Source: Myxococcota bacterium (GTDB lineage: Bacteria > Myxococcota_A > SURF-8 > G963677705). From it: a stretch of DNA of 64,000 bases. The notes beneath the pieces are model-generated. The model was not told where the DNA came from and did not search any database. It worked only from the letters and a program-made list of their open reading frames with translations. Both the position numbers and the translations under genes were made by a program. The stretch spans positions 1,900,774 through 1,964,773 of the forward strand of contig OY782497.1 in the NCBI GenBank assembly GCA_963677705.1. Reading direction: 5' to 3'. Positions 8,983 through 60,733 of the stretch are shown here, piece by piece. Numbering within the stretch: the first letter of the stretch is position 1; every line of letters starts with the position of its first letter.

Positions 8983-11358
8983 ATGCGTTGGTCATTTCTG
9001 GCCCTTTTCCTTTTGAGTATTTGCACGTTTCTGCTTTCTTCCTGTGGAGATGATGGCGGCTCGTCCTCTGATTCCTCGGATGGTGACCTCGTTGCCGACG
9101 GGGATGATGAAACAGGGACGGAAGAAGATGGAGACACGGAAGACGACACGGAGCCGGCCAGGGTTTCGGAAAATTACAAGGTGCGCGGCAGCATCGAGCA
9201 GATTTATATCTGGTTGGCCGAGCCGGGGATCACGATGGAAGTCGTTTCCTCCCAGGATGAAGTCATCGCCTCCGGTGAAACGGATGATCTGGGCAGCCTT
9301 GTTTTTCGTACCCTGCCCCCTGCCGAAGACTACCGCGTGCGCCCGGCTGATGACCCGGATGATTACACCGACCAGATCCATGTCATGTCCATTGAAGGCA
9401 GCCAGCCGGACGAGGACTTCTACGCATCGCAGACCCTCCAACCGGGCTATGGCTATCTGACCGCCCGCGATGGAACCACCCTCTCCATCTTCGTTTCCCT
9501 GCCGGGGCCGGTGGAAGACGGGCCGTATCCGACGGTGGTCAACTATTCCGGCTACAGCCCATCGCGACCGGGGCAATCGTTGGGAGAAACCGCCGAGTTG
9601 TTCTGCGACGACTACCCCATCCTCTGTGACGCCCCCAGCGCGCCATCGGCCTTGATTGCCGGGGTGATGGGCTATGCCTCGGTCAGCGTCAACCTGCGGG
9701 GAACCGGCTGTTCCGGTGGAGCCTATGACTACTTCGAGCCGATGCAGATTCTGGATGGCTACGACGTGATTGAAATTGTCGCCCGTCAGTCCTGGGTCAA
9801 GCACCACAAAGTGGGCATGGTCGGCCTCTCCTACCCCGGTATCACGCAGTTGTTCGTCGCCAGTTCCAATCCACCCAGCCTTGCCGCCATTGCACCCTTC
9901 TCCGTCATCGCCGACACGGTCACGTCCACCCTGGTTCCGGGAGGTATCTACAACAACGGGTTTGCCCTGGAATGGATTCAGATGGTCTTGGACAAAGCCA
10001 GCCCGTATGCCCATCAGTGGATTGTCGATCTGGTGGACGCCGGAGACACGATCTGCGAAGAAAACCAGCTTCTGCACGGACAAAAACTGGATGCCATCGC
10101 CAAAGCGCTGGAGAATCCCTACTACACGGATGAGGTCGCCAAACCCTTGGACCCCACCACCTTCGTACAGAAAATCAACGTTCCGGTCTTCATGACCGGT
10201 CAGACCCAGGATGAACAGACCGGCCCCCATTTTCCAGCCTTGTTTGACAAATTCACCCAATCGCCCGTGACGCGGTTCACCGTGACCAACGGGATTCACA
10301 TGGATGGCTTTGCACCGCAGATTCTTGGGGAATGGGCCAACTTCCTTTCCTTCTACGTCAACCGGGAAATCCCCGGCATCGACTCCACCGTTCGCGGGAT
10401 TGTGCCGCTGTTCATGGTGGATGTCTACGGCGCGCAAGGCTTGTCCCTGCCGCCGGAGCGCTTTACAGAGTACACGGATTTCGAACAGGCCAAGGCGGAC
10501 TACGAAGCGGAAGATGCGATCCGGGTGATTTTTGAAACGGGAGCCCAAGAAGGCATCACGCCCGGCGGGCCGGAGGGCGTGTTTGAAGCCGGATTCAGCG
10601 AATGGCCCATTCCGGAACTCGTTCCCACGCGCTACTACTTCCAACCGGGAGGGGCTATGTCCCTCACCACTCCCGATGCCACCGAAAGCGCCTCGTGGTT
10701 CATTCCCGACCCGGAAGCGGGGGACCGGATCACCTTGAACAGCGGCTCGGTGGAAACCCCGCAACCGGATTACATCTATCGGGATCTCGTTTCCGGCAAG
10801 GCGGTCAGCTTCCTCAGCGAAGCCCTTGAAGACGATCTCTTTCTGATCGGTCCGGGGTCGGTGGATCTGTGGATTCAATCGACGGCGGATGATGCCGACC
10901 TGGAAGTACAACTGAGCGACGTGCGGCCCGATGGCAAGGAATCCTTCATTCAGAATGGCTGGTTGCGGGCCAGTCATCGCACCCTGTTACCGGAAAGCAC
11001 CGACCTGCGCCCCGTTTCCTCCCATTACGAAGAGGATGTCTCTCCGCTTCCCGCCGACGAATGGACCCTCGTCCGTGTGGAGCTGATGGCGATCAACCAC
11101 ATTGTCCGGGCCGGATCTCGCCTGCGCCTGAGCATCGACACCCCCGGCGATAGCTGCGCCAGATGGCGGTTTCTGCTCCTGGAAACGGACGACGACACGC
11201 GGCACTACATCGCTCATGACTCCACTCATCCGTCCAGCATGGTGCTACCCGTCGTTCCGGATCTTGTCACCGAGGGCGAGCGGCCCGACTGCACGGCCCT
11301 TCGCGGCCAACCCTGCCGGGACTATCTTGACTTCGTGAACAACGAAGCCCTGCCCTGA
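8983..11358 (+). CDS. Acidic lipoprotein with CocE/NonD (Xaa-Pro dipeptidyl-peptidase, S15) family hydrolase domain
   Basis: The signal peptide plus lipobox LLSSC is followed by a D/E-rich linker (GDDGGSSSDSSDGDLVADGDDETGTEEDGDTEDD). Later comes ...MVGLSYPGITQLF, a GxSYxG nucleophile motif typical of CocE/NonD hydrolases. 791 aa. Confidence 0.65.
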   Translation: MRWSFLALFLLSICTFLLSSCGDDGGSSSDSSDGDLVADGDDETGTEEDGDTEDDTEPARVSENYKVRGSIEQIYIWLAEPGITMEVVSSQDEVIASGETDDLGSLVFRTLPPAEDYRVRPADDPDDYTDQIHVMSIEGSQPDEDFYASQTLQPGYGYLTARDGTTLSIFVSLPGPVEDGPYPTVVNYSGYSPSRPGQSLGETAELFCDDYPILCDAPSAPSALIAGVMGYASVSVNLRGTGCSGGAYDYFEPMQILDGYDVIEIVARQSWVKHHKVGMVGLSYPGITQLFVASSNPPSLAAIAPFSVIADTVTSTLVPGGIYNNGFALEWIQMVLDKASPYAHQWIVDLVDAGDTICEENQLLHGQKLDAIAKALENPYYTDEVAKPLDPTTFVQKINVPVFMTGQTQDEQTGPHFPALFDKFTQSPVTRFTVTNGIHMDGFAPQILGEWANFLSFYVNREIPGIDSTVRGIVPLFMVDVYGAQGLSLPPERFTEYTDFEQAKADYEAEDAIRVIFETGAQEGITPGGPEGVFEAGFSEWPIPELVPTRYYFQPGGAMSLTTPDATESASWFIPDPEAGDRITLNSGSVETPQPDYIYRDLVSGKAVSFLSEALEDDLFLIGPGSVDLWIQSTADDADLEVQLSDVRPDGKESFIQNGWLRASHRTLLPESTDLRPVSSHYEEDVSPLPADEWTLVRVELMAINHIVRAGSRLRLSIDTPGDSCARWRFLLLETDDDTRHYIAHDSTHPSSMVLPVVPDLVTEGERPDCTALRGQPCRDYLDFVNNEALP

Positions 11359-11420
11359 CCGGGGCAGACGCTCACCCGACGCGGCCTACCGTCCGTGTCG
11401 CCACAATGGTGTCATAACAC

Positions 11421-11452
11421 GAAAAAGGAGTTACGAGAAACTCGTAACTCCT
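11421..11452 (-). terminator. Rho-independent terminator downstream of tRNA on minus strand
   Basis: Perfect 12-bp stem AGGAGTTACGAG/CTCGTAACTCCT with a 3-nt loop. On the minus strand it is followed by TTTTTCGTGTT, directly 3' of the tRNA. Confidence 0.55.
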
Positions 11453-11461
11453 TGATCTTAC

Positions 11462-11538
11462 TGGTACCGCCTATCTGATTTGAACAGATGACCTCCTGAT
11501 CCACAGTCAGGCGCTCTAACCAACTGAGCTAAGGCGGC
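11462..11538 (-). tRNA. tRNA-His (anticodon GUG); no encoded G-1, G1.U72 wobble pair, A73, genomically encoded CCA
   Basis: The reverse complement folds as a canonical cloverleaf. Acceptor GCCGCCT/AGGCGGT, D-arm GCTC-AGTTGGTTA-GAGC, anticodon arm CCTGA-CUGUGGA-TCAGG, T-arm ATCTG-TTCAAAT-CAGAT, then ACCA. The base 5' of G1 is C. Confidence 0.75.
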
Positions 11539-11935
11539 GTAAAGCCTTTGCCGAAACGGCAGGTAGGTAACCTAGTGAATACCGCGTGATCTGTCAAGGA
11601 TTTTCTCCGGCAAACCAAAGCGCGGTGATTCGAACGCTGGCAGGGGGAACGACCGGGGCAAGATGCAGGATGGACCTGGAAAGAACCGGAGAAAAGACAG
11701 GCGGGGAAGGGTCATGAGCCGCGAATGTAAATGAAAAGGGAGACCTGCCATCATCGCTCAACCTAGGTACTGCCGTCTGATCGAAGCGGAATCTCCACAT
11801 TGTTGAGCGACGACACCTATATACTTAATCGGGTTTTCTTTTCTTTGCCTGGAATGGTAGCTTGGGCGGCGTACAGATCGTTTGGCTACTCTTCTGCATT
11901 CCTATGGCTCGATCAAGCAACGAGGAGGACATAAT

Positions 11936-12826
11936 ATGAACCTGGCAGATACATTGAAAACCTTGGATCGCCCGATGATTTCCTTTGAGTTCTTCCCACC
12001 GCGGACTGAAAAAGCGGCGGCGGGTTTTGAAGGCACGATCGAGACCCTGGCGAAACTCAAACCCGACGTCGTCAACGTAACCTTCGGGGCGGGTGGCTCA
12101 ACCCGCGAGGGGAGCTACCAGATTGTTGATATGCTGAAGAACCGAAAAGGCTTGAACACGGTGGCTTATGTTGCCGGCTACGGTCTGGGGCCCGACGATA
12201 TTGCTGCGGTCGTCCAAGGCTATGAAACACTGGGAATTGAAACCCTTTTTGTCATCCGTGGCGATGAACCCAAGGGAGACGACAGCTTCCGGCCTCACCC
12301 CGACAGCATGGCCTATGCCTCTGAGATGATCGGCTTCATTGCATCTCAATCTTCTCTTTGCCTCGGTGCAGCCGGATACCCGGAAGGTCATATTGATGCA
12401 ACAAGCAAGGATGAGGATCTCAAGCACCTGAAGGCAAAGGTTGATAAGGGCGCAAAGTACATTGTTGCTCAGTATGTTTATGATGTGAATCTGTTCTTCG
12501 ATTTCGTCCGGCGCGCCCGCGAGATGGGTATTGAAGTTCCGATCCTACCGGGTATCATGCCCATCTATTCAGAGAAGCTGACCCGTAACCTGGCGCGGAT
12601 CTGCGGTGCGTCAATCACCGAAGACATTGAAAAGGGTTTGGCTGCCCTGCCGCCGGACGACAAGCAGGCAGTGCTTGATTACGGGGTTCAGGTAGCAACA
12701 CAGCAGTGTCGTGAATACCTGCGCCGAGGCGTGGACGGGCTGCATTTCTATACGATGAATCGTGCCAATACCGTGGTGCGTGTGATCGAACAGCTCCGGC
12801 AGGAGGGCTTGCTTCCATCCGGTTGA
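11936..12826 (+). CDS. metF: 5,10-methylenetetrahydrofolate reductase
   Basis: MNLADTLKTLDRPMISFEFFPPRTEKAAAG...VNVTFGAGGSTREGS...HFYTMNRA. The SFEFFPPRT MetF signature is present and the protein is collinear with E. coli MetF. GGAGGA sits 8 nt upstream of the ATG at 11936. Confidence 0.9.
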   Translation: MNLADTLKTLDRPMISFEFFPPRTEKAAAGFEGTIETLAKLKPDVVNVTFGAGGSTREGSYQIVDMLKNRKGLNTVAYVAGYGLGPDDIAAVVQGYETLGIETLFVIRGDEPKGDDSFRPHPDSMAYASEMIGFIASQSSLCLGAAGYPEGHIDATSKDEDLKHLKAKVDKGAKYIVAQYVYDVNLFFDFVRRAREMGIEVPILPGIMPIYSEKLTRNLARICGASITEDIEKGLAALPPDDKQAVLDYGVQVATQQCREYLRRGVDGLHFYTMNRANTVVRVIEQLRQEGLLPSG

Positions 12827-13089
12827 TTCCGCGTGGAGTCAGGTGGTGATGAAGCCATAGCCCGTTGCAGGGTTTCCCACCGATGTATCACGAGCGTACT
12901 CTCCGGTAGGCCGGGTTCATTCAGAACCCGGCCTTTGGGATTCCACCATTTTCGTTTGGCGACTGGGGTATCTTTTGATTGCAAGGGACTGATATGACGT
13001 CGCCAGACAAAAAGATGAAAATTCAAACCCTTCGTCAGCCAAGTACCCAGATCAGGGTTCTTTTATTAACCCGGCGATTAGAACCGAGC

Positions 13090-13200
13090 TTAAGAATCGT
13101 CATCCTCCGCGCAGGCGGAGGATCCAGTCAACTGAGTTTACTCTGGATTCCCGCCTTCGCGGGAATGACAAAATGGATGCTTCGTCTAACTTATTGTTGC
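13090..13200. repeat. Pair of REP-like hairpin elements (GTCATYCYCCGCGNAGGCGGRGRATCCAG) in inverted orientation plus shared flank
   Basis: 13099-13127 reads gtcatcctccgcgcaggcggaggatccag. 13143-13169 reads ctggattcccgccttcgcgggaatgac, its reverse complement. About 75 bp (13125-13200) matches the reverse complement of 22630-22705. Confidence 0.6.
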
Positions 13201-13295
13201 TGTGTTAATAAGCCACCTGCTTGCTTAACCCTCCTGCCTTGCTATAATCGGAAGGCCATGTTGTTTCGTCACCTTTCTAGGAAGGAAGAAGCCTG

Positions 13296-14933
13296 ATGCG
13301 TTGTTCTCCGTTTTTACTCGTCATGTATATCGCGCTCTTCATGGGTGTTTTCGTGTCCTGCTCAAACAGCAGCAACCCTTCCAGCGGTGACGAGGATGTT
13401 GAGATCGAGATCGACCCCAAGCTTTCGGCCCTGATCTTTGAAGGAGGTGTTGCCGTAACGAGACCAATACCAAGTACCTTGTCCTGTGATTCCCCTTTGC
13501 GCATCAAAGTGATCCGGCACAGCGAGTTACGGATTGGAGCCCCGTTTGCCTTTACCCTGGAAAGCGAGCAAGATACCCTTGAAGAAGTTACCAGTGTCCT
13601 TGTTGCCCTTAATGATGCAGATGGCTACATTGAGGTACCAGGGCGTTTGTATAACCATGTGTTTGAACTAGCGGGCGAACTGGAGGCGCTGGATTCCATT
13701 CAAGGAGAATCCATCTCGCTTCAATTCGCCTTACGGACCCAAACAGGGGTCATTGGACCATTAGCCCCTCTTGCCATTGCCATTTCGGACAAGGAAGAAA
13801 CCCAGTTTCATTCCGCAACTTATTATGATGGTATCAGATCTCTGTATCTTCGGAACAGCCAAGCAGTCTATTCTCCCCCCCCTGAAGGCGCTCTGGATGA
13901 CGGGTTACCGCAAATCGAGAGTCTATCAGGTATCTCGAAGTTTCCCCCGGAAGGTCCTTTCTCTATCACTATCAAAGCTGAACACTGTGAGGAGAACCTG
14001 TCTGTGGTCGTGAAGAGTCCATTTTCTGATTTCTATTTATCAGTTCCTTTCACATCATGTTCCACATCCTCTGTACATCTTTGCGGTTTTATCTCTGGCT
14101 ATTTTAGAGAGAAAAGGAACGTATCACCACCAACTATTTTTCTTGGCGATACCATGGTATATCAATTCGCCTTGCAAAATAAACAAGGGGTTGGCCTGTA
14201 TCGTAACTGGGCGATTCAACTCGTCTCCCCAAAGGAGGCCAAACTATCAAGGCAAGAATACTATACCAATACCTGGGTCACCATTCCCGCTGGCAGTTTC
14301 ATGATGGGTTGTTCTTCGGGGGATAAAGACTGTGTCGGAAATGAGTCACCCCAACATCGTGTTGACATCCCATCTTTCAAACTTATGAAATATGAAGTAA
14401 CGCAGTTTCAGTATGAGTTCACCATGAGATCAAACCCTAGCCATTTTAGCCCATACGGTGATGGTCAGGATTGTGGCCCGGAATGCCCTGTTGAATCAGT
14501 TTCATATTACGATGCCCAGGACTTCTGTGAAAATATCGGAGCTCGCCTTCCGTCCGAATCGGAATGGGAATATGCAGCCAGAGCGGGATCAACGACCCCA
14601 TTTTCCTGCGGTGATGATCCATCCTGTTTGGATGCTACCGCTTGGTATCGTGACAACAGCAAAGGACATCCTCATCCGGTTGGGCAGAAAGAAGCCAACG
14701 CTTTTGGCCTTCATGATATGACAGGGAACGTCTTTGAAATCGTACAGGATGATTTTTGCAGTTATACCTACGCGCCTACGGATGGGAGTCCACATGAAGA
14801 TTGCCATAGCGATCATGCAATGCGCGGAGGGTCTTGGTATACGCAGCATGTTCGCTATTTGAGAACCTCTCACCGTGAGGCAATCCCCGGCGGTTACTCC
14901 ATCATCGGATTTCGATGTGCGATGGATCTGTAA
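13296..14933 (+). CDS. Lipoprotein with C-terminal FGE-sulfatase (SUMF1/DUF323-like) domain; FGE catalytic Cys pair absent
   Basis: Signal peptide and lipobox FVSCS. The C-terminal ~250 aa read ...PSESEWEYAARAGSTTPF...HDMTGNVFEIVQD...MRGGSWYTQHVRYLRTSHRE...GFRCAMDL, the formylglycine-generating-enzyme fold signature. The CxxxxC active site is missing. Lower GC than flanks. Confidence 0.75.
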   Translation: MRCSPFLLVMYIALFMGVFVSCSNSSNPSSGDEDVEIEIDPKLSALIFEGGVAVTRPIPSTLSCDSPLRIKVIRHSELRIGAPFAFTLESEQDTLEEVTSVLVALNDADGYIEVPGRLYNHVFELAGELEALDSIQGESISLQFALRTQTGVIGPLAPLAIAISDKEETQFHSATYYDGIRSLYLRNSQAVYSPPPEGALDDGLPQIESLSGISKFPPEGPFSITIKAEHCEENLSVVVKSPFSDFYLSVPFTSCSTSSVHLCGFISGYFREKRNVSPPTIFLGDTMVYQFALQNKQGVGLYRNWAIQLVSPKEAKLSRQEYYTNTWVTIPAGSFMMGCSSGDKDCVGNESPQHRVDIPSFKLMKYEVTQFQYEFTMRSNPSHFSPYGDGQDCGPECPVESVSYYDAQDFCENIGARLPSESEWEYAARAGSTTPFSCGDDPSCLDATAWYRDNSKGHPHPVGQKEANAFGLHDMTGNVFEIVQDDFCSYTYAPTDGSPHEDCHSDHAMRGGSWYTQHVRYLRTSHREAIPGGYSIIGFRCAMDL

Positions 14934-14948
14934 GTACTTAAGGAAGTG

Positions 14949-16319
14949 TCAATGGTACATCTCATAGACAGATTCCATTGGCCCTGCAACACCTCGAATT
15001 GCACATTCACTGCGTTCAAGATACAAATAATCTCCGCCATCTGTCGTTGCATCACAAAAGGATGACCCTATGGCTCCTGGTATTGCGGGACTCCCATCTC
15101 CTCCATAATATATGTCGCGTTGATATGGTTCTTCATCTCCAGCAATCTTCCATAGTTTTTGACTCTCTTCATCAATGCTAAAAACATCGGCTTGTGATCC
15201 TTCGTAAAACATCACACCAACATCAGTCATAAAGAACTGGTTAGGGTAGTAATACGCTTTTGTGTCAAATGACATTCCATCATATGGACATCCACGAGAA
15301 TCGTTTCCGAACGGGCAATCGTTCATGGCCCCAGGACCACTTATAGCTTTCATTTTCATAAGCATGTCATCATCACTGTAATCAACATGATAGATATGAC
15401 CGCCAAATCCAGCATAACCGCTATTATCATCAAATATTTGCAGGCTATAAATAAGATCATAATTTCCCACATCAATGCACTCACCAGCATCATCATACAT
15501 GCATATACCTATTTCTTCACGCGAACCATCCAATGTCAGCCTAGATACCCCGCGACCTGTTGTAGCAATAATTTTCTCATCATCGATATAACTAACTATA
15601 TAGTATGACTTAACAGAAGACGGATCGTCTCTCGTATATTTTTCACATACATAGTCATCAACACGCTTACTGTCCAAACCATACAAAACAACACATGTAT
15701 ACAACGAGTCATCGTTATCATAACCATCATCGTTTTCATCGACATAAACATTCAATGGGATGAGCATGTTTCGCTTATATATTTTTGCGATCCCAGCAGT
15801 GAACAACTTGCATCCATTATCAATTCCGAATTGCATTCCATATACGTAGTATTCTTCAAATCCACCATCCTCTGCAAGAAATACCATACGAAACACCACG
15901 TTATCGGAAATAGAAGAAGATAGATCATCCGGCCCCAAGACCATCACTGCGTTGTTCAGATCCGGATCCCAAACCATACTACGGACTGTACAATCCTTTG
16001 TATTATTCTCCACAGGTAGAAAACCATAGGTAAACAACTCTCCCGTCTCTACGTCATCCCTCCATAGAGTCTTTTTCTCCTTGGCCCACCAAGGGTTAAA
16101 AGGACGACCGTCATCAACAATCGTGTAATCACCGTAGTCTTCTGTAGAGTTATCGTATAGGCCAGATTCTCCTTCGCAGATCACAAGCTCTGCGGGTTCC
16201 GGGGTCTGGGAGTTGTCTTCCTGTCGGCATCCGGCAGAAAGCATCAACAGAACAACAAGCGTGATGGTGTGATATGCAAACCGCGTCATGGTCGTGTCAT
16301 CCTTTCCAGACTGATTCAT
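14949..16319 (-). CDS. Hypothetical lipoprotein (markedly AT-rich gene)
   Basis: 456-aa ORF. The N-terminus ...MTRFAYHTITLVVLLMLSAGCRQED has an L-S-A-G-C lipobox. The product is D/Y/N-rich and acidic. GC content is visibly far below neighbouring genes. No recognisable family. Confidence 0.55.
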   Translation of the reverse strand: MNQSGKDDTTMTRFAYHTITLVVLLMLSAGCRQEDNSQTPEPAELVICEGESGLYDNSTEDYGDYTIVDDGRPFNPWWAKEKKTLWRDDVETGELFTYGFLPVENNTKDCTVRSMVWDPDLNNAVMVLGPDDLSSSISDNVVFRMVFLAEDGGFEEYYVYGMQFGIDNGCKLFTAGIAKIYKRNMLIPLNVYVDENDDGYDNDDSLYTCVVLYGLDSKRVDDYVCEKYTRDDPSSVKSYYIVSYIDDEKIIATTGRGVSRLTLDGSREEIGICMYDDAGECIDVGNYDLIYSLQIFDDNSGYAGFGGHIYHVDYSDDDMLMKMKAISGPGAMNDCPFGNDSRGCPYDGMSFDTKAYYYPNQFFMTDVGVMFYEGSQADVFSIDEESQKLWKIAGDEEPYQRDIYYGGDGSPAIPGAIGSSFCDATTDGGDYLYLERSECAIRGVAGPMESVYEMYH

Positions 16320-16326
16320 CCTTCCC

Positions 16327-18522
16327 TTAGCGGGTCAGTTCCAGCACCAGGTGGTAGTCCTTCTGGCTACCGCCGAAACGAATGCGCAGGCTGTGGCTTC
16401 CCTCACGGAGCATCACGCCGGACTTGGGCGTGGTAAAGGGTTCTCTGCCGGGCAGGGTGATGGAAGCCCAGGAGGCACCGCAATTGAAGCCCAGCTTGGC
16501 CTTGGCGGAAAAACGCCCCTGCCCTTCATGGCGCTCATCCACTTCCAGACGCAGGCGAAGCCGCCCTTCCGCCGCGCCGACCGTCACCAACAGCGGCTCC
16601 GTCGGATGACGGAACTCCAGCGTTCCTGTTGCAGGCTTTCCCTTGGAAGCCACGGTCAAGCCGTCCATAGCACGCAGACGAACCCGCAACGGAGCCGCTT
16701 CCAGGTGCAGATTCACCGAGGTTTCCTCTCCCTCCTTCAGCACGACGGGAAGGCTCTGCGCCCGATACCCTTTGGCTCCCACCCGCAACCGGTATTCCTT
16801 GCCGCGAACCAGCTTGTCCACACGGAAAGGGCTGGTTCCCGAAAGACGTCGCCCTTCCAGAAAGACCAGCGCATTCTTCGGTTCGGTATGCAGCACCAGG
16901 GTTCCAAGCAGGCTGTTCAGTGCCACCCGGATGAGATACGGCTCTTCGGAAGCCTCGGTAATCAGAAATTCCTTAGTCACCGGCACGTAGCCCGTGCGGC
17001 GCAGCGTCACCGTCTGGGGTTTGGAAAGCGGAATATCCGGCAGGCTCAACGGGGTCGTCTCGGTCAATCGTTGGCCGTTGAACTGAACTTCGGCCCCCGG
17101 CGGATCGCTTTCAAGAATCAGCTTACGGCTCAAGGCTTTCAGTTCCAAGGCTACATTCTGCGCTTCGTTCTCTTGCAGGGAAAGCTCATGACGAAGGCGC
17201 TGATAGCCCGGCGCGCGAAGCTCCAAGACGGACTCACGGTCCACCCGCAAGCCACGAAGCACCAAAGGCCGTGTCTCGGCTTGAAGGACGCCATTCAAAA
17301 ACACCTGGGCCAACGGGGGAGTGACCGTCACGGTTACCGGCCCCGCCTTGGGCACGCCGGGCCAGGCGATCCAGGCCAGAAACGCCCCAAGAAAGCCAAG
17401 CAGGGAAAGCAACAAGACCCACCGCCGCGAGGAAGCCCCAGCCGTTCCGGTGGTTGCGTCGTGATCCGTGGAAAGAGAGGATACCTCATCCTGGGGAAGA
17501 AAGGGTTTGGCCGCAACCAGGGTTCCCTTCTTCTCCGGACGTTCAATGGGTTTCTCGGCAACAATGGTGCGCTCCGGGATCTCCACGACTCCGGTTTCAC
17601 TTGCCCGATGCACCTGCTGCACATACCAGGAAAGCGGTTGCTCCGGCTTGGGTAGGCGGCCTAGAGCCTCGTTCAAGGCTTGAGCCATCTGCAGGGCGGT
17701 ATCGTAGCGCTCCGCTTTTTCCAGACTCAGACTACGTTCCAGAATCCGTATCACTTCGTCGGGGAGCGTCGGATCATCCGGGCGCGTCCAAGCCCCGGAA
17801 CAGATGCGGGCAAACAGGCTTGCGGAGTCCTCCCCGGCTTTCCGCGGGTCATCGGGTGCAAAGACCTTGCACCCATAGAGCAGTTCAAACAGCACCAGGC
17901 CCAACGAGTAGACATCGCTTCGGCGGTCTTGCGGCTCTCCGCGCACCTGCTCCGGCGAGAGGTAACAAAGCTTTCCCGCCAAACGATCCTCGTGAACCTC
18001 TTCCCCGCGCCGCACTTTGGCCAGACCGAAGTCTGTAAGCTTCACCTCGCCTTCGCGGTCCAAGAGAATGTTTCCGGGACTGATGTCCCCATGAACCAGG
18101 CCAAGCGCCTGGCCCTGCTCGTCACTCAGACGATGGGCGTAGTCCAAGCCCTTGCAGGCATCACGAACGATACGCAGGGCGTGGGCTGCGGGAAAGGGAA
18201 TCGCCTGGGCCTTGAGTTCACCAAGCAGGCGGGAAAGGTCCGGCCCGTCCAGGTATTCCATCGCCAGAAACAGGCTGTCGTCTTCCTGACCGAAATCATA
18301 GATGTGGACGATGTTGGCGTGGTTCAACCTCGCCGCCAGACGGGCTTCCTGTTGGAAACGCCGGACGAAGTCTTCCTTGCGAGCCAAAAAGGGAAGCATA
18401 CGCTTGATCGCCACCAGTTTTTCAAACCCGGCTTTGCGTACCAGCTTCGCTTTATACACTTCCCCCATTCCGCCCTGGGCGATGCGTTCCAGAAGTCTGT
18501 ACTGGCCGATTCGGTCCTGCAT
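16327..18522 (-). CDS. Hanks-type Ser/Thr protein kinase with C-terminal PEGA domains
   Basis: YRLLERIAQGGMGEVYKAKL (Gly loop plus VAIK lysine), VHGDISPGNILL (catalytic loop, HGD variant), LTDFGLAK (DFG) and SPEQ (APE-like). A TM segment and repeated PEGA-like modules (...SDPPGAEVQFNGQRL...) follow. Start chosen at MQDRIGQYRLL, 21 codons inside the ORF-track start. Confidence 0.8.
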   Translation of the reverse strand: MQDRIGQYRLLERIAQGGMGEVYKAKLVRKAGFEKLVAIKRMLPFLARKEDFVRRFQQEARLAARLNHANIVHIYDFGQEDDSLFLAMEYLDGPDLSRLLGELKAQAIPFPAAHALRIVRDACKGLDYAHRLSDEQGQALGLVHGDISPGNILLDREGEVKLTDFGLAKVRRGEEVHEDRLAGKLCYLSPEQVRGEPQDRRSDVYSLGLVLFELLYGCKVFAPDDPRKAGEDSASLFARICSGAWTRPDDPTLPDEVIRILERSLSLEKAERYDTALQMAQALNEALGRLPKPEQPLSWYVQQVHRASETGVVEIPERTIVAEKPIERPEKKGTLVAAKPFLPQDEVSSLSTDHDATTGTAGASSRRWVLLLSLLGFLGAFLAWIAWPGVPKAGPVTVTVTPPLAQVFLNGVLQAETRPLVLRGLRVDRESVLELRAPGYQRLRHELSLQENEAQNVALELKALSRKLILESDPPGAEVQFNGQRLTETTPLSLPDIPLSKPQTVTLRRTGYVPVTKEFLITEASEEPYLIRVALNSLLGTLVLHTEPKNALVFLEGRRLSGTSPFRVDKLVRGKEYRLRVGAKGYRAQSLPVVLKEGEETSVNLHLEAAPLRVRLRAMDGLTVASKGKPATGTLEFRHPTEPLLVTVGAAEGRLRLRLEVDERHEGQGRFSAKAKLGFNCGASWASITLPGREPFTTPKSGVMLREGSHSLRIRFGGSQKDYHLVLELTR

Positions 18523-18768
18523 GGTGATCGTTTGTCCGCCTGATTGATTGCGCTCTTGGGTGAGATATCGAGGAGCGAGAAGCATCCATAGTCATCAAGA
18601 CCAGAGGACAAGCCCCTTCCTTCCTCCAAAACACCGCGTGTAAAAGCGCTCTCACTTTGCCAAAGAAGCAGAACCCTGGCAAGCTATTTGATGCGCGGCA
18701 GAGCGACAAAAACAGGCTCTTTCCTTCAAACCAGGAGAGAGCCTGTGAAACGAGGTCTTCGTCCGTGC

Positions 18769-19542
18769 TTAGATGGTTTCCCCTCCGTCCACGGTCAACA
18801 CGGTTCCGGTAATCAGGCTGGCCGCTTCGGAACAGAGGAAGGCCACGGCCTGGGCTGGTTCGCGTGGTTCCCCGATACGGGGAATGGCGTGGGTTTTCAA
18901 CACTTCATTCAAGACTTCTTCACTGGACCATAAGGCCGCGCTGAAGTCCGTTTTAATCAAGCCCGGCGCGACGGCGTTGACCCGGATACCACGCGGCCCC
19001 AACTCTTTGGCGAACACCTTGGTCAAGTTGATCACCGCCGCCTTGGATACCGAGTACAGGCCAATCAGGGGCATGGGGGTAATCCCCGCCACGCTGGCCA
19101 GGTTGACCACCGCACCACCGCCGTTTTTTTCCATGTGGGGCACGCATTCTTTGATGAAACTGTAGTAACCCACCACGTTGGTGGTCAGGATCTTGGTAAA
19201 GATTTCCTCATTGCTGTCAATGATGAACCCGAACTGCGGATTGGTCGCGGCGTTGTTGACCAAGAAGTCGATGCGCCCCAGTTCGGCGGCCACCTTGGCA
19301 ACGGTTTCCCGAATGGCTTCGGTTTTACCGGCATGGCAGGCCAAGGGAAAGGCCTTGACCCCAAACTCCCCGCGAATCTCTTCCGCCACGGCATCCAAGG
19401 CTTCTTGCTTGCGACTGATCAGAGCGACGTCCGCTCCCAGCCCGGCAAGCTGTCTGGCGATCTCTTTTCCAATACCCCGGCTGGCTCCGGTTACCAGAGC
19501 TACCTTCCCTTGAAGATTCAACTGTTCTTTCATCATCGTCAC
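18769..19542 (-). CDS. SDR-family oxidoreductase (FabG-like 3-oxoacyl-ACP reductase family)
   Basis: GKVALVTGASRGIGKEIA (TGxxxGIG Rossmann motif), NNAA, and the catalytic YSVSKAA (YxxxK). 257 aa. Confidence 0.85.
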   Translation of the reverse strand: MTMMKEQLNLQGKVALVTGASRGIGKEIARQLAGLGADVALISRKQEALDAVAEEIRGEFGVKAFPLACHAGKTEAIRETVAKVAAELGRIDFLVNNAATNPQFGFIIDSNEEIFTKILTTNVVGYYSFIKECVPHMEKNGGGAVVNLASVAGITPMPLIGLYSVSKAAVINLTKVFAKELGPRGIRVNAVAPGLIKTDFSAALWSSEEVLNEVLKTHAIPRIGEPREPAQAVAFLCSEAASLITGTVLTVDGGETI

Positions 19543-20006
19543 CTACATCGAAAAGGGTTTGGTTGATCTCATCTGCGCGAGGCAATGTAGCACGAAAACG
19601 GGGTAGAATCAAAACCCAAGCAAGCCCGGACCAGGAATCGCCCGGCGTATCCGGGTAAGAATGGCAAGCCCCTGCTGAGTCGAGCCGTCCTATCCTGTCA
19701 CGACCGTTAGGATACCTCAAGCTCTTCCCTGTAGCCATCGCCTTGGATGACGATTCACTATCAAGCCCATGCCTACGGAGTCCGGCGTTTTCTCGTTGCG
19801 TCCAGGGTGGATTCATGATACAAAATCTGCGGGAATGTTTGTCCTTGAAGCAACGGCAAAGTGCGCTTTCTTTTTATGCAAATTTGACTTAATTTTAGGT
19901 CGGGTGTATACTCTGCACCGTATTTGCGGAACAGTGTTGACCAAGCCGTATCAGCCCCAAGGCTACGTCTAATTGGTAGACTATCGACATAGGAGACCGG
20001 CTAACG

Positions 20007-22544
20007 ATGGGAACTTTGCTAGTTGTGGATGACAGTCGTACCATCCGTCAAGCGGTACAAATGACCTTTCAGAATACGGGTATCCAGGTTTTGGAGGCGG
20101 ACAACGTTCCGCAAGGCCTGGACATTCTTCGTCAACAGAAACCAGACATGGTGTTGGTGGATCTTGTCATCCAGGGTGACGCGGAAGCCGGCTTTTCCTT
20201 TGCCGAACAAGCCTTGAGCGGAAGCCAGACAGGCCGTATTCCGATCTTCATTCTCTCTGGAAAGAACCGCAACGTAGACAAGAAGCGGGCGAAACTGATC
20301 GGTGCCAAGGTGTTTATCAAGCCCTTCGACACCCAGGATCTCATCGACCTGGCAGAGCTGACCATTGCGGAAAGCGATCAGAAGCAAAGTTCGGCTCCCG
20401 CTCCGGGTTCCCCAACTCAAAACGCGATGGAAGCCGCTTCCGCGCCTCGCATGACCATGCAGATGAGCGCTTTCAACCCCGATGCCATTGCGGCACCGGC
20501 AGACCCCTTCGGTGTTCCTGCGGCCCCAAAACCCACAGCGAGCATCCCAGCAGCAGCTCCGATGCCCGATCCTTTTGCCGCTCCGCCTCAGCAGGCTCCG
20601 GCAGCAGACCCCTTCGCGGCTGCGCCTCAACAGACTCCGGCGGCAGATCCTTTCGCCGCTCCGCCTCAGCAGGCTCCGGCAGCAGACCCCTTCGCGGCTG
20701 CGCCTCAACAGGCTCCGGCAGCAGATCCCTTCGCCGCTGCACCTCAACAGGCTCCGGCGGATGATCCCTTCGCTTCTGCACCTCAACAGGCTCCGGCAGC
20801 AGATCCCTTCGCCGCTGCACCTCAGCAGGCTCCGACAGCAGACCCCTTCGCCGCTGCACCTCAACAGGCTCCGGCGGAAGATCCTTTCGCTGCTGCACCT
20901 CAGCAGGCTCCGGCAGCAGACCCCTTCGCCGCTGCACCTCAACAGGCTCCGGCGGAAGATCCTTTCGCTGCTGCACCTCAGGCCGACCCGGTGGAGATGG
21001 ATGGCGACGATCTGGAGATTATGGATGACTTGGAGGAAATCGAAGAAGTCGAAGCTATCGAACCGGAATTGGAACAAACCAATACCCCGGTGGAATTCGA
21101 CGAAGGCGATTTGGACCTGATCGAAGACGATCTGGAAGAGCCGGATTACCAAGACATGGTCACCACGGATGACGTTGTGGCCGAAGCCGCTCCGGCAGCA
21201 GACCCCTTCGCGGAAGACGACCCCTTCGGCCCTCTACCGGACCCGCCCTCTACGCAGAAAGCGGAACCGATCGCCGATCCCTTCGCCGGATTGGATCAGG
21301 CTCCTATTGAAGAACCCCCTTTGGAGGTTGCTCCCAAAGACAGCCCCAAAGATCCCTTTGCCGGATTGGCCGATCCCGGCTTTGACGACGAGCCGTTGGA
21401 AACCCACGCCAAAGCTCCCAACGATCCCTTCGCCGGACTGAACGAACCGGAACCCGAACCGGAGATTCCGGAGGTAGAGGCCGAGCCGGAGGAATTGGAC
21501 GCCGTCGAGTTGGAAGAGGAACCCGCCGAGGCGATGGAGATTGAACAGATCGACCCGGAACCCATTCCGGACATTGACCTGGAACCCGGCCCAGACGCAG
21601 AGTTGGAGGTCGAAGCACTGCCGGAATTGGAAAGCGTGGATCTGGATGAAGACGCCGCGGAACCCATCCCCACGGAGTCCGAGCAACCCGTTCCCAACGT
21701 CCCTATTCCCACCCCGGAACCGGTTGATGTACCGGAACAATCCGCTCCTCTGGAAGTGGAAAGCCAAAGCATGGCTGAAGCGCAGTTCTTCGCCACCCAG
21801 ACCCAGACGGTTAAGGCTCCCGTGCTGACCGATCCCAAAGCCCAGCCTGTGGAACCGGTTCCGGCAGAACCCATTCAGGAATCCGCAAGCGATGCTCTGG
21901 AGTATGAGAGTCCCGTTCGCATCACCGACGCCAGCCTGGAAGCGCATGGCGATGGTGACAATGGTGACTTTGTGGATGCTGCTCAGATCATGGCCCTGAT
22001 GCGTAAAGTCCTGCGTGAAGAACAAGCCCAGGCTCCGGCAATGGCCGCCCAGGCCGCTTCCGCGCCTTCCGCTGGAGTGGACATGAATGAACTACGCGAT
22101 GTCGTCCGCAGCGTTGTTCGCGACGAAATGAAAGCCAACCAGACGGCTCCTGCCGCGCAGGCTGTGGATACCGTGGCTCTCTCTGCGGCCTTGTCTCAAA
22201 CCGTGAAGGCCGAACTGGCCAAAATGCCTGCACCTCAGGCTGCGGCCCCCGTGGCTTCAGACAAACTCTCGGATGGCCAGATGCGCACCATCGTCAAGGT
22301 GGTGGCTGAAACCGTTCATTCCGTGGTGCAGGGTGAAATGACCAATGCCCTGGCGAAACTGCCTGCCCCCAGTGCCTCTGCCGGTGGCGGCGGCGGCGCG
22401 GATCTGACGACCATCCGTCAAGCCATTCAAGAAGAGATTGGCCAACTGATGAGCCAGAAGATTGAAGCCATTGCCTGGGAGGTGGTTCCCAAGATGGCGG
22501 AAACCATCCTCAAGCGGGTTATCGCCAAGCAACAGCAAGGCTAA
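20007..22544 (+). CDS. Response regulator (N-terminal receiver domain) with long Pro/Ala-rich tandem-repeat and poly-acidic regions
   Basis: MGTLLVVDDSRTIRQAV...DMVLVDLVIQGD...KPF is a CheY-like receiver with phospho-acceptor Asp. Then ~10.8 tandem DPFAAAPQQAPAA repeats, a D/E-rich stretch with further DPF(A/G) motifs, and an Ala-rich C-terminal region. 845 aa. Confidence 0.8.
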   Translation: MGTLLVVDDSRTIRQAVQMTFQNTGIQVLEADNVPQGLDILRQQKPDMVLVDLVIQGDAEAGFSFAEQALSGSQTGRIPIFILSGKNRNVDKKRAKLIGAKVFIKPFDTQDLIDLAELTIAESDQKQSSAPAPGSPTQNAMEAASAPRMTMQMSAFNPDAIAAPADPFGVPAAPKPTASIPAAAPMPDPFAAPPQQAPAADPFAAAPQQTPAADPFAAPPQQAPAADPFAAAPQQAPAADPFAAAPQQAPADDPFASAPQQAPAADPFAAAPQQAPTADPFAAAPQQAPAEDPFAAAPQQAPAADPFAAAPQQAPAEDPFAAAPQADPVEMDGDDLEIMDDLEEIEEVEAIEPELEQTNTPVEFDEGDLDLIEDDLEEPDYQDMVTTDDVVAEAAPAADPFAEDDPFGPLPDPPSTQKAEPIADPFAGLDQAPIEEPPLEVAPKDSPKDPFAGLADPGFDDEPLETHAKAPNDPFAGLNEPEPEPEIPEVEAEPEELDAVELEEEPAEAMEIEQIDPEPIPDIDLEPGPDAELEVEALPELESVDLDEDAAEPIPTESEQPVPNVPIPTPEPVDVPEQSAPLEVESQSMAEAQFFATQTQTVKAPVLTDPKAQPVEPVPAEPIQESASDALEYESPVRITDASLEAHGDGDNGDFVDAAQIMALMRKVLREEQAQAPAMAAQAASAPSAGVDMNELRDVVRSVVRDEMKANQTAPAAQAVDTVALSAALSQTVKAELAKMPAPQAAAPVASDKLSDGQMRTIVKVVAETVHSVVQGEMTNALAKLPAPSASAGGGGGADLTTIRQAIQEEIGQLMSQKIEAIAWEVVPKMAETILKRVIAKQQQG
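20568..20990 (+). repeat. Coding tandem repeat, 39-bp unit x ~10.8 (DPFAAAPQQAPAA) inside response-regulator gene
   Basis: Near-identical 39-nt units (gatcccttcgccgctgcacctcaacaggctccggcagca and variants) are repeated head-to-tail. Individual units differ by single-codon substitutions (A/P, A/T, A/E, A/D). Confidence 0.85.
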
Positions 22545-22570
22545 AGCCTGATCTTTCACGAGCCAATCAA

Positions 22571-22599
22571 GGCCGGGAGTTTTCCCGGCCTTTTTCTTT
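22571..22599 (+). terminator. Rho-independent terminator after response-regulator gene
   Basis: GGCCGGGAgtttTCCCGGCC followed by tttttcttt, 27 nt after the stop at 22544. Confidence 0.6.
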
Positions 22600-22629
22600 G
22601 CCAGCCTACCCGTCTTTGTTATGAACCCG

Positions 22630-22705
22630 GCAACAACAAGTTAGACGAAGCATCAACTTTGTCATTCCCGCGGAGGCGGGAATCCAGATTAAATTCAGTA
22701 GACCG
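22630..22705. repeat. Second copy of the REP-like element (inverted relative to 13125-13200)
   Basis: caacaacaagttagacgaagcatcaactttGTCATTCCCGCGGAGGCGGGAATCCAGattaaattcagtag. An adjacent hairpin gtcgggcaaggaatttgcccgac lies at 22706-22728. Confidence 0.6.
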
Positions 22706-22755
22706 TGTCGGGCAAGGAATTTGCCCGACCTACGATTCTACGATTCCTTGGCCAT

Positions 22756-49604: not shown

Positions 49605-52600
49605 CTACTGGCAACGCCCCCAGGTCAGATCACAGCTTGTATCCGACGGCTCGCAGCCGCGCAGGGTACTCAGATCATCTCCCATGTCACAACCAACGGT
49701 GCAGAACCCTCCTTCACAATGGGCTCCCTTCGTGATCTGGGCTTCCGTCTCAACAAAGCAATCGCTATCATTGACACAGGTGGGATAGGCATGGGGCAGA
49801 CTGCTATCGCCGCAGATACCGCGATCCTCATCGCAGGTATCTCCATTGGTACAATCCGCGTTGCTGAAGCAATCCACACGGCAGATTCCGGTCTGGTAGC
49901 CGTCTTCCACATCCCCATCGGCTTCCCCGACAAGCACGCAATAGCTACCACGCGGGCAATCCTGATGCACGGCCCCGGATTCACCTCCGCTACAGCGGGA
50001 GCGACACTCATCCGCCGGATTGGGCAGATCGCTCGCATCGCACTTTCCACGCTCCAAAGAGCAGCTCAGACAGGGACCGCAACCACGCGGCCCTTCCATC
50101 TGGACACCATGATCACAGCTTGTCTGGCAGGTTCCACCGTCACACCAACTTAGGAAGGGGCAATCCTCATCCGTGGCACAGGAGGGGAATTGATCCGGGT
50201 AGCTTCCCGTTCCACAGACACCACGATCGGTGTTACAGCTTTGCCCATCCGAACACTCGGAGTCTTCAAAACATTCAATCAGACAGCTTCCCGTCTCCGC
50301 ATCGCAATAACTGCCTCTAGCGCAGTCCGTATGGTCGGCACAAGGAGGTCGGTAATAGATGCAGCGACCATAGTCATTGCAGTATTCGTTGTTGCCGCAA
50401 TCACTGTTGTTGTCACAGTCTTTGCTACAGAAAGAGGGGCAATGGTTGCCTTCCGGACATTCCTGAGTACGGCAATAGCCGATAATCACGTCCACACCCT
50501 CTTGCGTAACCTTGCAGTCATCATCTACCTGACACCCTGTCTCGCAGCGATCCCCGACACAGACCATCGTGGGATTAATGGCCTTACAGTCGGCGTCCGG
50601 GTCAGCCTGGTCTGTATCACACAGAGCGAGGAACTTACATTCGCGGGTTTCGATTTCACAGTAGTGATTATCCGGGCAGTCTTCGTTGGTCGCACATTCG
50701 GCACAACGCCCCGCTGCACAGACCGATTCTCCCGAACAGGTTCCACCAAAGCTTCCGTATTCGGTACAATCATAGGTGCATTTTGCGGCGTCAAGGTCAC
50801 AGTAGGTGATAATACCACCGCCCAAGGGATAATCATGCTCGGCAGGCGGCGGATTCAAAGGCAGAACCGGTTGGCAATACGTCGCCGCATCACAATCATG
50901 GGTCTGCTGACAGATTCCATTGTAATCACAGAGCGAACCGCTGGGGCAGTCGGCATTGGTCTGACACTCGAAGGTACAGATACGCCCACCTTCCGCCAGT
51001 TCCTGGCAGTATTCATGAGTGGAACAACTTGGATCCTGACCATGACTGCAGGCGCATTCCCAATCCGCTTCACACTCGTTAGGCACGCAACGCCCTTCAA
51101 GTGTACACATCTCACCTTCCAGGCAATTGTCCAATACATTTTCGGCATTGCACTCGGACTGGCAGAGATTGAAGCCGGTTTCATCATCCATCGCGCAGTG
51201 ATAGTAAGACCCCATATCCTCAGCGCATTCGTTGTCATCCACACAGGTAAACACCGGATTGCAACGTCCAAGGGATTCGTCACAAACAAAGACCAGAGAA
51301 TCATCCGGGTTATCATCTTCACAGGGCGTCTCGGCATTGCAATCCTGAACGCAAAGCGTGGTTTGCAGGTCACAGTGGTAACCGGCGTCGCATTCCTCAT
51401 CGGTTTCATTGGGACAGGTATCGGCTTCCTCACAGATACCGATCTCATTGCAACGCTCGGTTTCCGCATCGCACCCGCTGGCATTGCCATAACAATCGAA
51501 GACGCATTGCCCATACTGGGCTTCGGTGCAGGTGGTTCCGTAGGTCAAGCCCTCACGGCAGCAGTACATATGACCTTGGCCGGCGCAATCTTCATCCGTC
51601 TGGCAACCGTCTTCCACACAGACCTGCTCTTCCATTGCACACTGGCTCTGTCCCGGCGGGCAGCCGCAGAACTGACCCTCCGGGCAGTCGCCGAAGTCGG
51701 AGCAGATGCCGCATTTTCCATTAAGCAGACACTGCTCTCCATCGGGACAGGAGGTCGGCTCGTCAGGATCGCAATCCTGAGTGCAGAAGCCGTAATCAGG
51801 ATGGCTTTCCTCATCCGGACAATAATGATACACGGGGCATTCACTCGTGCTTTCGCAGGGAACAGGATCATCCCCGGCTTCGGGATTGTAGGCACAGACA
51901 TGGCCATTGCAGACATACATACCTTCGCAGACATCCACGGTGGGACAACCGGGTACACACTCAAAGGTCGGGTTATCCCCTTCCATATCGCACTTGAACC
52001 CGACATTACACATCTCGTGTTCCACACAGCCGAGTTCCTCGGTTACACATTCACCATAGACGCAGTCCTGACCTTCAAAACAATCGTCCTCGTCCTCGCA
52101 GTCCATCACACAGATAAGAAGCTGAGGATCACAGTATTTCCCTTGAGGATGACAGAGCGAGGCTTCCGTCTGTTCCGTACAGGTGGTGACATCACCGTCG
52201 GGAACATCTCCTTCTTCACATTGGCCACGACTGTTGCAGAAGTAACCTTCCGAACAGCACGTATCGCCACTGCAGACGGTGTCGTTCAGGCAATCGTAGG
52301 CGCAACTGTTGTTGCCGCAATACTGCCCTTGAGGGCAATCCGTATCTTTGTTGCAACAAGGCGGAGAACTCTGACCGATACACATATCAAGCTGGCAGCG
52401 GCCACGGTCATCACAAAAGGCCATTGATGCGCAATTCAACTCCGGCGGGTTGCAGTCATAACCGCAGGTGGTGTTTTTGCAATACAGACCCATCTGGCAC
52501 TCATCATCCAGAGAACAAGCCTCCCCAAAGGGCAGTCCGTCCTGCTCTTCTTCCTCTTCAATATCGCCATCTTCCTGGCTCAACACGCAACGACCGTGAT

Positions 52601-53768: not shown

Positions 53769-53827
53769 GATCCGGCTCCCGCCTGAAAAGTTGGTTCCAC
53801 AGGGTTTGTGATGGAACATCATCGTCT

Positions 53828-57796: not shown

Positions 57797-57813
57797 GATC
57801 TCCTCGCTCCCAC

Positions 57814-58323
57814 CTAGTCCGAAATCCGCGTCAATTGCTCAACCGTCTGCACCCACTTGACCACAGGTCCTGGCGTGCCATCAGACTGCAAAGGCCGATA
57901 CATGGAATCAATCTTGTACACAAAAATCCGCTTACGCTTCTGGGCGCGTTGCCCGGAGCCTCGGTTGTCGGTTACGGTATTGTCCACACGGGCGTCAATA
58001 GTATCAATACAATACATCGTATTCTGGTCACCGGGTGGGTAGTAATGCGTCGTCGCCGCATCCTGGCAATTGTAGCCCTCAAGGTTGGGGTTCGTAGACC
58101 CTGCAACGATGGTACGCGCCATTTCCGCCCCCGCTTCCGCCAAGGCCAAGCCGCGCACGCTATCCCGAAAAGCCATCGCGATACGCTGCTCCTGCACCGA
58201 GGTATTCATCGCCGCAACTCCCAGGAGCGAGAGCATAATCATCAACACCATCGACATAATCAGAGCCGCCCCACGGTTGGTAGCATAAAACCACAAGGAG
58301 GATCGCTTTGTATTGGACGCCAT
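57814..58323 (-). CDS. pilX: Type IV pilus minor pilin PilX
   Basis: ...NRGAALIMSMVLMIMLSLLGVAAMNTSVQEQRIAMAFRDS...LALAEAGAE matches the PilX N-terminal domain pattern (QRGAALIVALxLLxVLTLLGxAAM...E). 169 aa. Confidence 0.65.
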   Translation of the reverse strand: MASNTKRSSLWFYATNRGAALIMSMVLMIMLSLLGVAAMNTSVQEQRIAMAFRDSVRGLALAEAGAEMARTIVAGSTNPNLEGYNCQDAATTHYYPPGDQNTMYCIDTIDARVDNTVTDNRGSGQRAQKRKRIFVYKIDSMYRPLQSDGTPGPVVKWVQTVEQLTRISD

Positions 58324-58334
58324 ATCCTTCTCCC

Positions 58335-59866: not shown

Positions 59867-59877
59867 CCAAGCCCTCC

Positions 59878-60653: not shown

Positions 60654-60733
60654 TCCTGAATCACACAGATATCAACAGCAAATCATACTGGACACCAACA
60701 GATCCGTGTCCTCGAAAAACAAACCGCGATCTA

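Follow-up and report, generated by a model that had tools for sequence, protein, structure and literature searches.

The stretch analyzed here (64,000 nucleotides of contig OY782497.1, positions 1,900,774 to 1,964,773; below, the window) carries on its forward strand, at 20007 to 22544, the gene of an 845-amino-acid (aa) response regulator. The frame is the sole long one across these positions, with no competitor. Its product begins with a receiver domain (REC) and continues into a long linker that includes a tandem array of 13-residue units, each with the tripeptide Asp-Pro-Phe (DPF), followed by an acidic tract, an Ala-rich helical region, and a short C-terminal domain. According to its sequence, the protein is a homolog of RomR and a member of a small long-form clade, marked by lengths of 808 to 966 aa and an extra, predicted helical region of about 140 aa before the C-terminal RomR-C domain. 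RomR proteins are response regulators that mark the cell pole and direct pilus-driven movement in myxobacteria and Bdellovibrio. Apart from the linker variant, nothing sets this one off from a family already described, and it is not a new kind of system. The initial annotation had proposed a RomR-like layout from composition alone and had not noticed the diagnostic RomR-C motif. With a RomR-C domain found by profile and a receiver that matches RomR receivers best, the resemblance proved to be one of true homology.

RomR has been defined by a REC, an unstructured and nonconserved linker, and an alpha-helical, Glu-enriched RomR-C domain with an invariant Trp and an invariant Pro (Keilberg et al. 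2012; PMC3441718). A RomR-C profile was built from the RomRs of Myxococcaceae, Anaeromyxobacter, Geobacteraceae, Bacteriovoracaceae, and Acidobacteriota, with the window protein excluded, and run against the six-frame open reading frames (ORFs) of the window. Only 1 of the 1099 ORFs was matched by this profile of reference taxa, at the C terminus of the 845-aa protein (47.5 bits; E value, 7e-14). The core motif there reads IAWEVVPxMAE and so includes both invariant residues, Trp and Pro, as well as the conserved Glu. In an alignment of 14 C termini W, E, V, and P were invariant, and W824, E825, V826, and P828 were invariant in alignments A1 and A4. AlphaFold2 (AF2) predicted an alpha-helical RomR-C, a single long helix from residue 800 to 844 in two independent runs, at moderate confidence (predicted local distance difference test score [pLDDT], 55 to 74).

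A motif scan covering 185,579 species, one genome each, gave 251 confirmed loci, the best 80 of which were kept. They came from Geobacter and other Geobacteraceae, Acidobacteriota, Myxococcaceae, Anaeromyxobacter, Nannocystaceae, Bdellovibrionota/Bacteriovorax, Nitrospirota, and others, taxa that overlap with the published distribution of RomR, and their ORFs encode REC-linker-C-terminus proteins of 304 to 672 aa (50 full-length). The Myxococcaceae ORFs of the scan start with MPKTLLVADDS or VPKNVLVADDS, and two of them (L042 and L073) end with ...LIKDRE.... The primers used to clone romR of Myxococcus xanthus translate to MPKNLLV... and ...KDRETQH*, and because the termini agree, the scan loci were taken to be romR. 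A full-length search of 5.8 billion proteins returned the identical protein together with low-complexity or REC-only matches and no close homolog; the REC-containing matches share the C-terminal motif ...IAWEV(I/V)PxLAE... with the query. An exhaustive search with aa 641 to 845 gave 11 matches, including P0025 (911 aa), P0028 (808 aa), P0030 (864 aa), and fragments. In these three proteins, a REC is followed by a long acidic linker and several helices, and the terminal motif is that of the query. Two further matches of this search were rejected as due to chance: P0033 and the eukaryote-like coiled-coil repeat protein P0027.

The N-terminal part of the protein leads to the same family. The Pfam model Response_reg (PF00072) matched aa 5 to 115 (E value, 1e-14), in agreement with the response regulator call of the initial annotation, and scans with Pfam and NCBIfam found no domain besides the receiver in the 845 residues. 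D8, D9, D52, and K105 are invariant in alignment A4, and S84 is present, as read from the sequence. The AF2 model of the receiver has a (beta-alpha)5 fold, with a pLDDT mostly of 70 to 86 (59 to 86 per block). Among the 4514 ORFs of the 80 romR loci, the best matches to the window receiver were RomR receivers, at up to 59 bits; 65 of the 77 matches, including the top 19, were ORFs that bear a RomR-C. The receivers of long-form RomRs scored 64 to 74 bits; in the PDB, where sequence searches matched only generic receivers and no chain named RomR, the highest score was 43 bits. RomR receivers from metagenome-assembled genomes of Myxococcota were among those closest to the window receiver. Judged by these bit scores, the window receiver belongs to the RomR receiver subfamily. 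In M. xanthus, E108 (KPF-E108) forms a salt bridge to RomX (bioRxiv 10.1101/2024.02.20.581209). Of the 110 family members with the motif found (111 full-length ORFs), 92 have E after KPF and 10 have D. The window protein and the long forms have KPFDTQ in common, and the acidic residue for RomX docking appears to be retained here as Asp.

Between REC and RomR-C (aa 121 to about 795), the protein consists of 16% Pro and 20% Asp plus Glu and gave no alignment with its relatives. AF2 predicted no secondary structure for aa 129 to 655 (pLDDT of 30 to 54 per 10-residue block, mostly below 45), and the nonconserved linker is thus modeled as unstructured. With the long-form alignment, AF2 reached a pLDDT of 58.6 for the C-terminal region and 43.5 for the full protein; because overall confidence was low, the models serve only for secondary structure and disorder. 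A poly-acidic tail had been annotated here. The acidity is real, with 31% Asp plus Glu and a net charge of -89 over aa 331 to 640, but it belongs to an internal tract and not to a tail. Three of the DPF motifs in this tract occur as DPFAGL, at aa 424, 449, and 473, spaced 24 to 25 aa apart. Predicted helices follow at residues 658 to 684, 693 to 713, 717 to 737, 756 to 782, and 800 to 844. A motif of the extension, E-x-x-H-(T/S)-(W/V)...L-P, reads EExHTWIxSAxxELP in the long forms and ETVHSVVQGEMTNALAKLP here, and helices with the pattern [LI]Rxx[IV]R[DE]E recur in relatives. The C-terminal region (aa 641 to 845) is indeed Ala-rich, at 20%. The internal VVRxVVRDEM-like repeats that had been described within it did not hold up, showing only weak mutual similarity, and internal duplications of RomR-C were likewise not significant (E values, 0.07 to 0.5).

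Table 1. Positions in the window of the response regulator gene, its parts, and its flanking signals
Feature	Position	Strand	Basis
RomR-family response regulator gene, 845 aa, ATG start, stop codon included	20007..22544	+	ORF list; exact protein on two public contigs
Receiver (REC), aa 1-128, with D8, D9, phospho-acceptor D52, S84, K105, KPFD motif	20007..20390	+	Pfam PF00072
Spacer rich in Ala, Pro, and Ser, aa 129-187; first isolated DPF at aa 166	20391..20567	+	AF2: no secondary structure, pLDDT 33-54 per 10-residue block, mostly below 45
Tandem array, 11 x 13 aa DPFAAAPQQAPAA, 39-bp units, last unit degenerate, aa 188-330	20568..20996	+	Tandem Repeats Finder and in-register reading
Acidic disordered tract, aa 331-655, with five more DPF motifs	20997..21971	+	composition, AF2
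Ala-rich alpha-helical extension, aa 656-794, helices followed by a Gly-rich hinge; shared with long forms	21972..22388	+	AF2, alignment
RomR-C domain, aa 795-845, ending …IEAIAWEVVPKMAETILKRVIAKQQQG	22389..22541	+	RomR-C profile
Sigma-70-like promoter candidate, TTGACT-17-TATACT, ~95 nucleotides 5' of start codon	19884..19912	+	10/12 matches
Shine-Dalgarno-like AGGAG, 11 nucleotides 5' of ATG	19991..19995	+	direct reading
Intrinsic-terminator-like hairpin, 10-bp stem, 7 GC pairs, T-run; 25 nucleotides 3' of stop	22569..22592	+	

The tandem repeat of the initial annotation was recovered by Tandem Repeats Finder with a period of 39, 10.6 copies (20568 to 20980), 85% matches, and no indels. A reading with a period of 78 fits better (91% matches), indicating that the array grew via duplication of two-unit blocks. 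D-P-F is invariant across all 11 units, which are mutually only about 85% identical in DNA. Among the ten full units, synonymous divergence (pS) was 0.35 and nonsynonymous divergence (pN) 0.05 (pN/pS, 0.14), in a comparison in which block-duplicated units are not independent. These values indicate that the peptide sequence of the array is maintained by selection. Taken with the second assembly described below, they show the array to be neither an assembly artifact nor a recent slippage product. In the protein as a whole, 17 DPF motifs were counted against 0.37 expected by shuffling (maximum, 3). The additional scattered DPF motifs that had been pointed out number six outside the array (aa 166, 399, 405, 424, 449, and 473), against 0.18 expected.

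Other RomRs (111 full-length RomRs and database relatives) carry at most two DPF motifs, and no DPF array was found in any of the approximately 120 other RomR linkers examined. The long forms P0025, P0028, P0030, and L086 have none of these motifs. Unrelated tandem repeats do occur in other RomR linkers, such as SEVEETT (six copies), VADEPLELTEE (four copies), and GETRAFPRMSFEE (four to five copies). In the relatives, acidic D/E-I/L-D/E runs directly follow the receiver and here the array intervenes; it therefore looks like an insertion produced by tandem amplification. DPFA, EPFA, SPFA, and SPFG are among the commonest Phe contexts of other RomR linkers, and the DPF array may amplify a motif class that already occurs in them. 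A degenerate DNA pattern for the unit DPFAAAPQQAPA had no match in JGI metagenomes. Repeat tails with DPF were also seen elsewhere, in the eukaryote-like CDC48/AAA+ proteins P0002 to P0004, with 36 to 46 repeats of the DPFAAAPxKK type, and in P0020, a Blastopirellula PQQ-repeat protein with a DPFAAPGGG/DPFGG tail. These AAA+ and PQQ proteins, as well as a Streptomyces PP2C and a Kitasatospora protein, match the repeat only and were rejected as homologs.

Two assemblies, with public contigs of 5.18 Mb and 4.08 Mb, encode the identical 845-aa protein, whereas the neighboring proteins are not identical between them. Positions 10016 to 22731 of the window (12.7 kb, comprising upstream genes and the response regulator gene) are 98.9% identical to the second assembly. 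Within the response regulator gene, the two differ at one position only, 20774 in unit 6, where the change is synonymous; each has 11 units. The initial annotation had regarded the repeat as a hotspot for copy-number variation and misassembly, a view that the same unit number in the second assembly and the divergence among units speak against. The low divergence between the assemblies reaches into the downstream giant gene and is therefore regional, not specific to the response regulator gene. The most divergent stretch is that of an upstream kinase gene (16327 to 18585), where 70 of the 144 differing columns (substitutions and gap columns) fall within one kb. In the second assembly, an IS110-family element (DEDD_Tnp_IS110, about 1.17 kb) lies between the response regulator gene and the giant gene, at 12726 to 13897 of L001, corresponding to window position ~22731. 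The window lacks this element, so the two strains, which are very close, differ here by an insertion polymorphism.

As expected for a RomR, the genome encodes type IV pili (T4P): a cluster at 54266 to 63593 (-) contains genes for a PilT-like ATPase, PilC, a pilin, a GspH/FimU-like protein, PilW, PilX, and PilY1. On the same strand, a 1405-aa ORF (49605 to 53822) comes after the pilY1, pilX, pilW, fimU/gspH-like, pilin, pilC, and pilT-like genes, and its 3' end (stop region) is overlapped by 10 nucleotides by a giant 8933-aa ORF (22813 to 49614, -). The only Pfam matches of the giant ORF are Big_13, Y_Y_Y, Ig_J, a lectin-like 3-keto-disaccharide-hydrolase domain, and a C-terminal FGE-sulfatase domain. 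Together, the pilus genes, the 1405-aa ORF, and the giant ORF look like one T4P minor-pilin operon ending in a giant surface protein. The response regulator gene appears to be transcribed as a monocistronic unit between a divergent SDR gene and the convergent giant gene. Of its flanking signals, the promoter candidate is weak by itself, with 1 site found against 0.8 expected.

At other romR loci, the gene directly 3' of romR is often valS. This arrangement, on the same strand and with a median gap of about 116 nucleotides, was found at 66 of the 123 loci with enough downstream sequence (L002 to L165), and it spans Geobacteraceae, Acidobacteriota, Myxococcota, and Bdellovibrionota. As far as searched, romR-valS is a widely conserved and unexplained gene pair. 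Three of the four long-form genes (P0025, P0028, and L086) have valS directly downstream; the contig of P0030 ends in an unidentified gene. Genes for PilZ-domain proteins lie within a few kb of long-form romR in L082 (16772 to 17110) and L084 (2676 to 4013); none lies near the window gene. The kinase gene mentioned above, which encodes a Ser/Thr kinase with PEGA domains (16327 to 18585, -), is divergent from the response regulator gene and 1.4 kb upstream of it. A Ser/Thr kinase is found near romR at 5 of 164 loci, with a similar divergent kinase in L064. Neither the kinase, at this frequency, nor T4P genes, present at 0 of 164 other loci, could be retained as a conserved romR neighbor.

Compared with RomR of M. 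xanthus (MXAN_4461, 420 aa), the window protein has the same order of a REC with a phospho-acceptor Asp, a disordered Pro-rich and acidic linker, and a helical RomR-C with an AWEVVPxLAE core, as well as the acidic residue after KPF, the docking place of RomX. It differs in being twice as long, with the 143-aa DPF array, the tract with a charge of -89, and about 140 extra helical residues, and in having a neutral, not a Glu-rich, RomR-C; its link to MglA, MglB, and Frz is by homology only. RomR of Bdellovibrio bacteriovorus (Bd2761), a hub of the invasive pole, belongs to the same family, and the pilus cluster of the window would be consistent with a function in positioning type IV filament machines. 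The Bacteriovoracaceae RomRs that were retrieved are short (379 to 504 aa) and have different linkers. The closest receivers are those of the four long forms, including L086 (966 aa), all metagenomic and uncharacterized. These share with the window protein KPFDTQ, an acidic linker with D/E-I/L-D/E runs, the EExHTW...ELP extension, and RomR-C, and they differ from it in lacking the array. FrzS of M. xanthus, the other regulator to which the architecture had been compared, has a receiver-like domain followed by a long coiled coil. Such an architecture does not fit the window protein, in which about 530 residues after REC are modeled as disordered, the C-terminal helices are predicted to be short and interrupted, and the C terminus matches RomR-C. 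The DPF/DPW regions of Eps15 and epsin resemble the linker by composition only, in that numerous Asp-Pro-Phe motifs recur at even distances within disordered sequence. They lack homology to the window protein, and the best matches to the array were low-complexity. An Eps15-like, AP-2-binding DPF-repeat protein was rejected, as no domain but REC was found, and hence no EH domain or UIM, and the DPF-rich matches cover the repeat only; we know of no AP-2 appendage domain in bacteria.

According to published work, RomX bound to the RomR receiver forms the bridge to MglA-GTP. RomR-C oligomerizes RomR, binds MglC, and is required for polar localization (PMC10329633). The linker alone also goes to the poles and is thus an independent pole-targeting determinant, and RomR linkers are not conserved but lineage-specific (PMC3441718). 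RomR is also reported to sequester MglB (PMC13408092). In Bdellovibrio, RomR is a hub for polar Tad/T4P machines and positions the Tad machine at the invasive pole (bioRxiv 10.64898/2026.07.08.737194). By homology with these systems, the window protein is probably a polar hub for MglA-type and type IV filament polarity, in whose linker the DPF array would act as a multivalent element. The homology to RomR is established above; from it we infer what the protein binds, how phosphorylation feeds in, and what the array does. The protein would be a cytoplasmic scaffold that clusters at the cell pole and organizes an MglA/MglB/MglC/RomX module and polar type IV filament machines; the T4P cluster in the same window is suggestive in this respect. 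The receiver would take a phosphorylation input at D52, with a RomX-like adaptor docking via the Asp after KPF, and RomR-C would oligomerize, bind a roadblock protein resembling MglC, and direct the protein to the pole, all as extrapolated from work on M. xanthus and Bdellovibrio. The linker would serve as a second pole-targeting element, enlarged here through tandem duplication of the 13-residue DPF unit. Its 17 Asp-Pro-Phe "stickers" would be displayed at even intervals, set in Pro/Ala/Gln spacer sequence beside the very acidic tract, and array and tract together could raise the valency of weak interactions, in self-association or in binding polar partners, that hold the hub at the pole.

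Several observations weigh against this polar-hub reading. No mglA, mglB, mglC, romX, or frz gene lies within the 64-kb window, and the window ORFs scanned yielded neither a Ras-like nor a Roadblock domain. No valS gene directly follows the window gene, and the proximity of PilT or PilC genes is seen at 0 of 164 other romR loci. The net charge of RomR-C (50-residue segment) is 0, compared with a family mean of -3.2 (range, -7 to 0; 1 of 78 at or above 0); the domain has no Glu pair after the motif, and the two core Glu (WE and AE) are retained. The negative charge of RomR-C is thought to matter for MglC binding. The equivalent of Val17 of RomR is Ala, which is rare (3 of 110 members), and this Ala and the neutral RomR-C could weaken MglC or RomX binding. 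Some of these features would be accounted for if the protein were derived from RomR but had departed from the MglA module to become the hub of another polar structure, for instance that of the pilus and giant surface protein encoded nearby; new partners would then account for the neutral RomR-C and for the new motifs of the linker. We regard such a departure as unlikely. The lost charge and the missing post-motif Glu are in line with it, as are the absence of the valS synteny, the convergent orientation of the response regulator gene with the giant ORF of the T4P minor-pilin/PilY1 operon, and the example of Bdellovibrio, in which RomR organizes Tad/T4P machines and predation and not reversals. 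However, REC and RomR-C both group with long forms located at the usual romR-valS position, which argues for orthology rather than a stray paralog; the acidic residue at which RomX would dock (KPF-D) has been retained; and 46% of romR loci are also without valS.

The part of the polar-hub reading that concerns the array can be challenged separately. Since no relative has a DPF array, its role is not inferable by conservation, and it is possible, although the less probable view, that the array has no specific binding role and is a neutral or length-setting expansion of a fast-evolving disordered linker. RomR linkers are indeed nonconserved and lineage-variable (PMC3441718), other RomRs carry unrelated tandem repeats and the closest relatives no DPF arrays, and similar DP[FY] repeat tracts exist in unrelated bacterial and eukaryote-like proteins. 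A neutral expansion sits less well with synonymous divergence among units whose peptide is kept, with the six dispersed DPF copies retained in a different sequence context, and with the enrichment of the motif class in other RomR linkers: [DEST]PF[AGST] occurred 40 times in 85 nonredundant linkers against 16.7 after shuffling (2.4-fold; z = 6), in a test that shuffles entire linkers and so ignores local composition. That the array or the long ORF is an assembly artifact or a decaying gene seems hardly credible. Short-read assemblers can collapse or expand tandem repeats, but the same protein was obtained in two assemblies whose upstream flank (10016 to 22731) differs by 1.1% overall and whose arrays are identical except for the synonymous position 20774, and the 845-codon frame is intact and accompanied by a ribosome-binding site and promoter-like and terminator-like signals.

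Evenly spaced DPF motifs in a disordered region are a classic form of multivalent, low-affinity docking array or condensate scaffold. One may speculate that the DPF array is a bacterial counterpart of the eukaryotic DPF/FG multivalent arrays, and that it either binds a folded domain of a polar partner in many copies or makes the RomR hub cluster in a condensate-like manner; we consider this analogy quite improbable in such a specific form. Within the myxobacterial polarity module, RomR alone reaches the pole unaided. If the multivalent reading of the array is true, tandem amplification of a short linear motif would be a way in which RomR linkers gain lineage-specific pole targeting, and the modest family-wide enrichment of [DEST]PF[AGST] would mark an old RomR-linker motif that is amplified here. 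The window protein offers a naturally occurring variant whose linker is made up largely of a regular, selectively maintained motif array. With its extra helices, it would be a convenient test case for the idea that pole targeting depends on short aromatic-acidic motifs and on their valency.

The protein also extends the RomR family to what is probably a deep, uncultured, Myxococcota-like lineage. NuoN of the window has a best database identity of 55 to 57%, its top named match being "Myxococcales bacterium," and Thermodesulfobacteriota/"Deltaproteobacteria" come next at about 50%. When proteins were searched with the RomR-C profile, all 120 matches listed were short fragments, with no named Myxococcus entry among them. 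Proteins of 50 to 95 aa consisting of RomR-C alone (P0110, P0111, and others) have been called on contigs of up to 3.5 Mb, and these may be either true stand-alone proteins or split gene calls. The GC content of the window is about 57%. Upstream of the response regulator gene, positions 13700 to 16100 form a low-GC island, with a GC content of 0.39 to 0.47 compared with about 0.57, which may have been horizontally acquired. It contains a 456-aa lipoprotein-like ORF (14949 to 16319, -) with no Pfam match, which adjoins an FGE-sulfatase gene.

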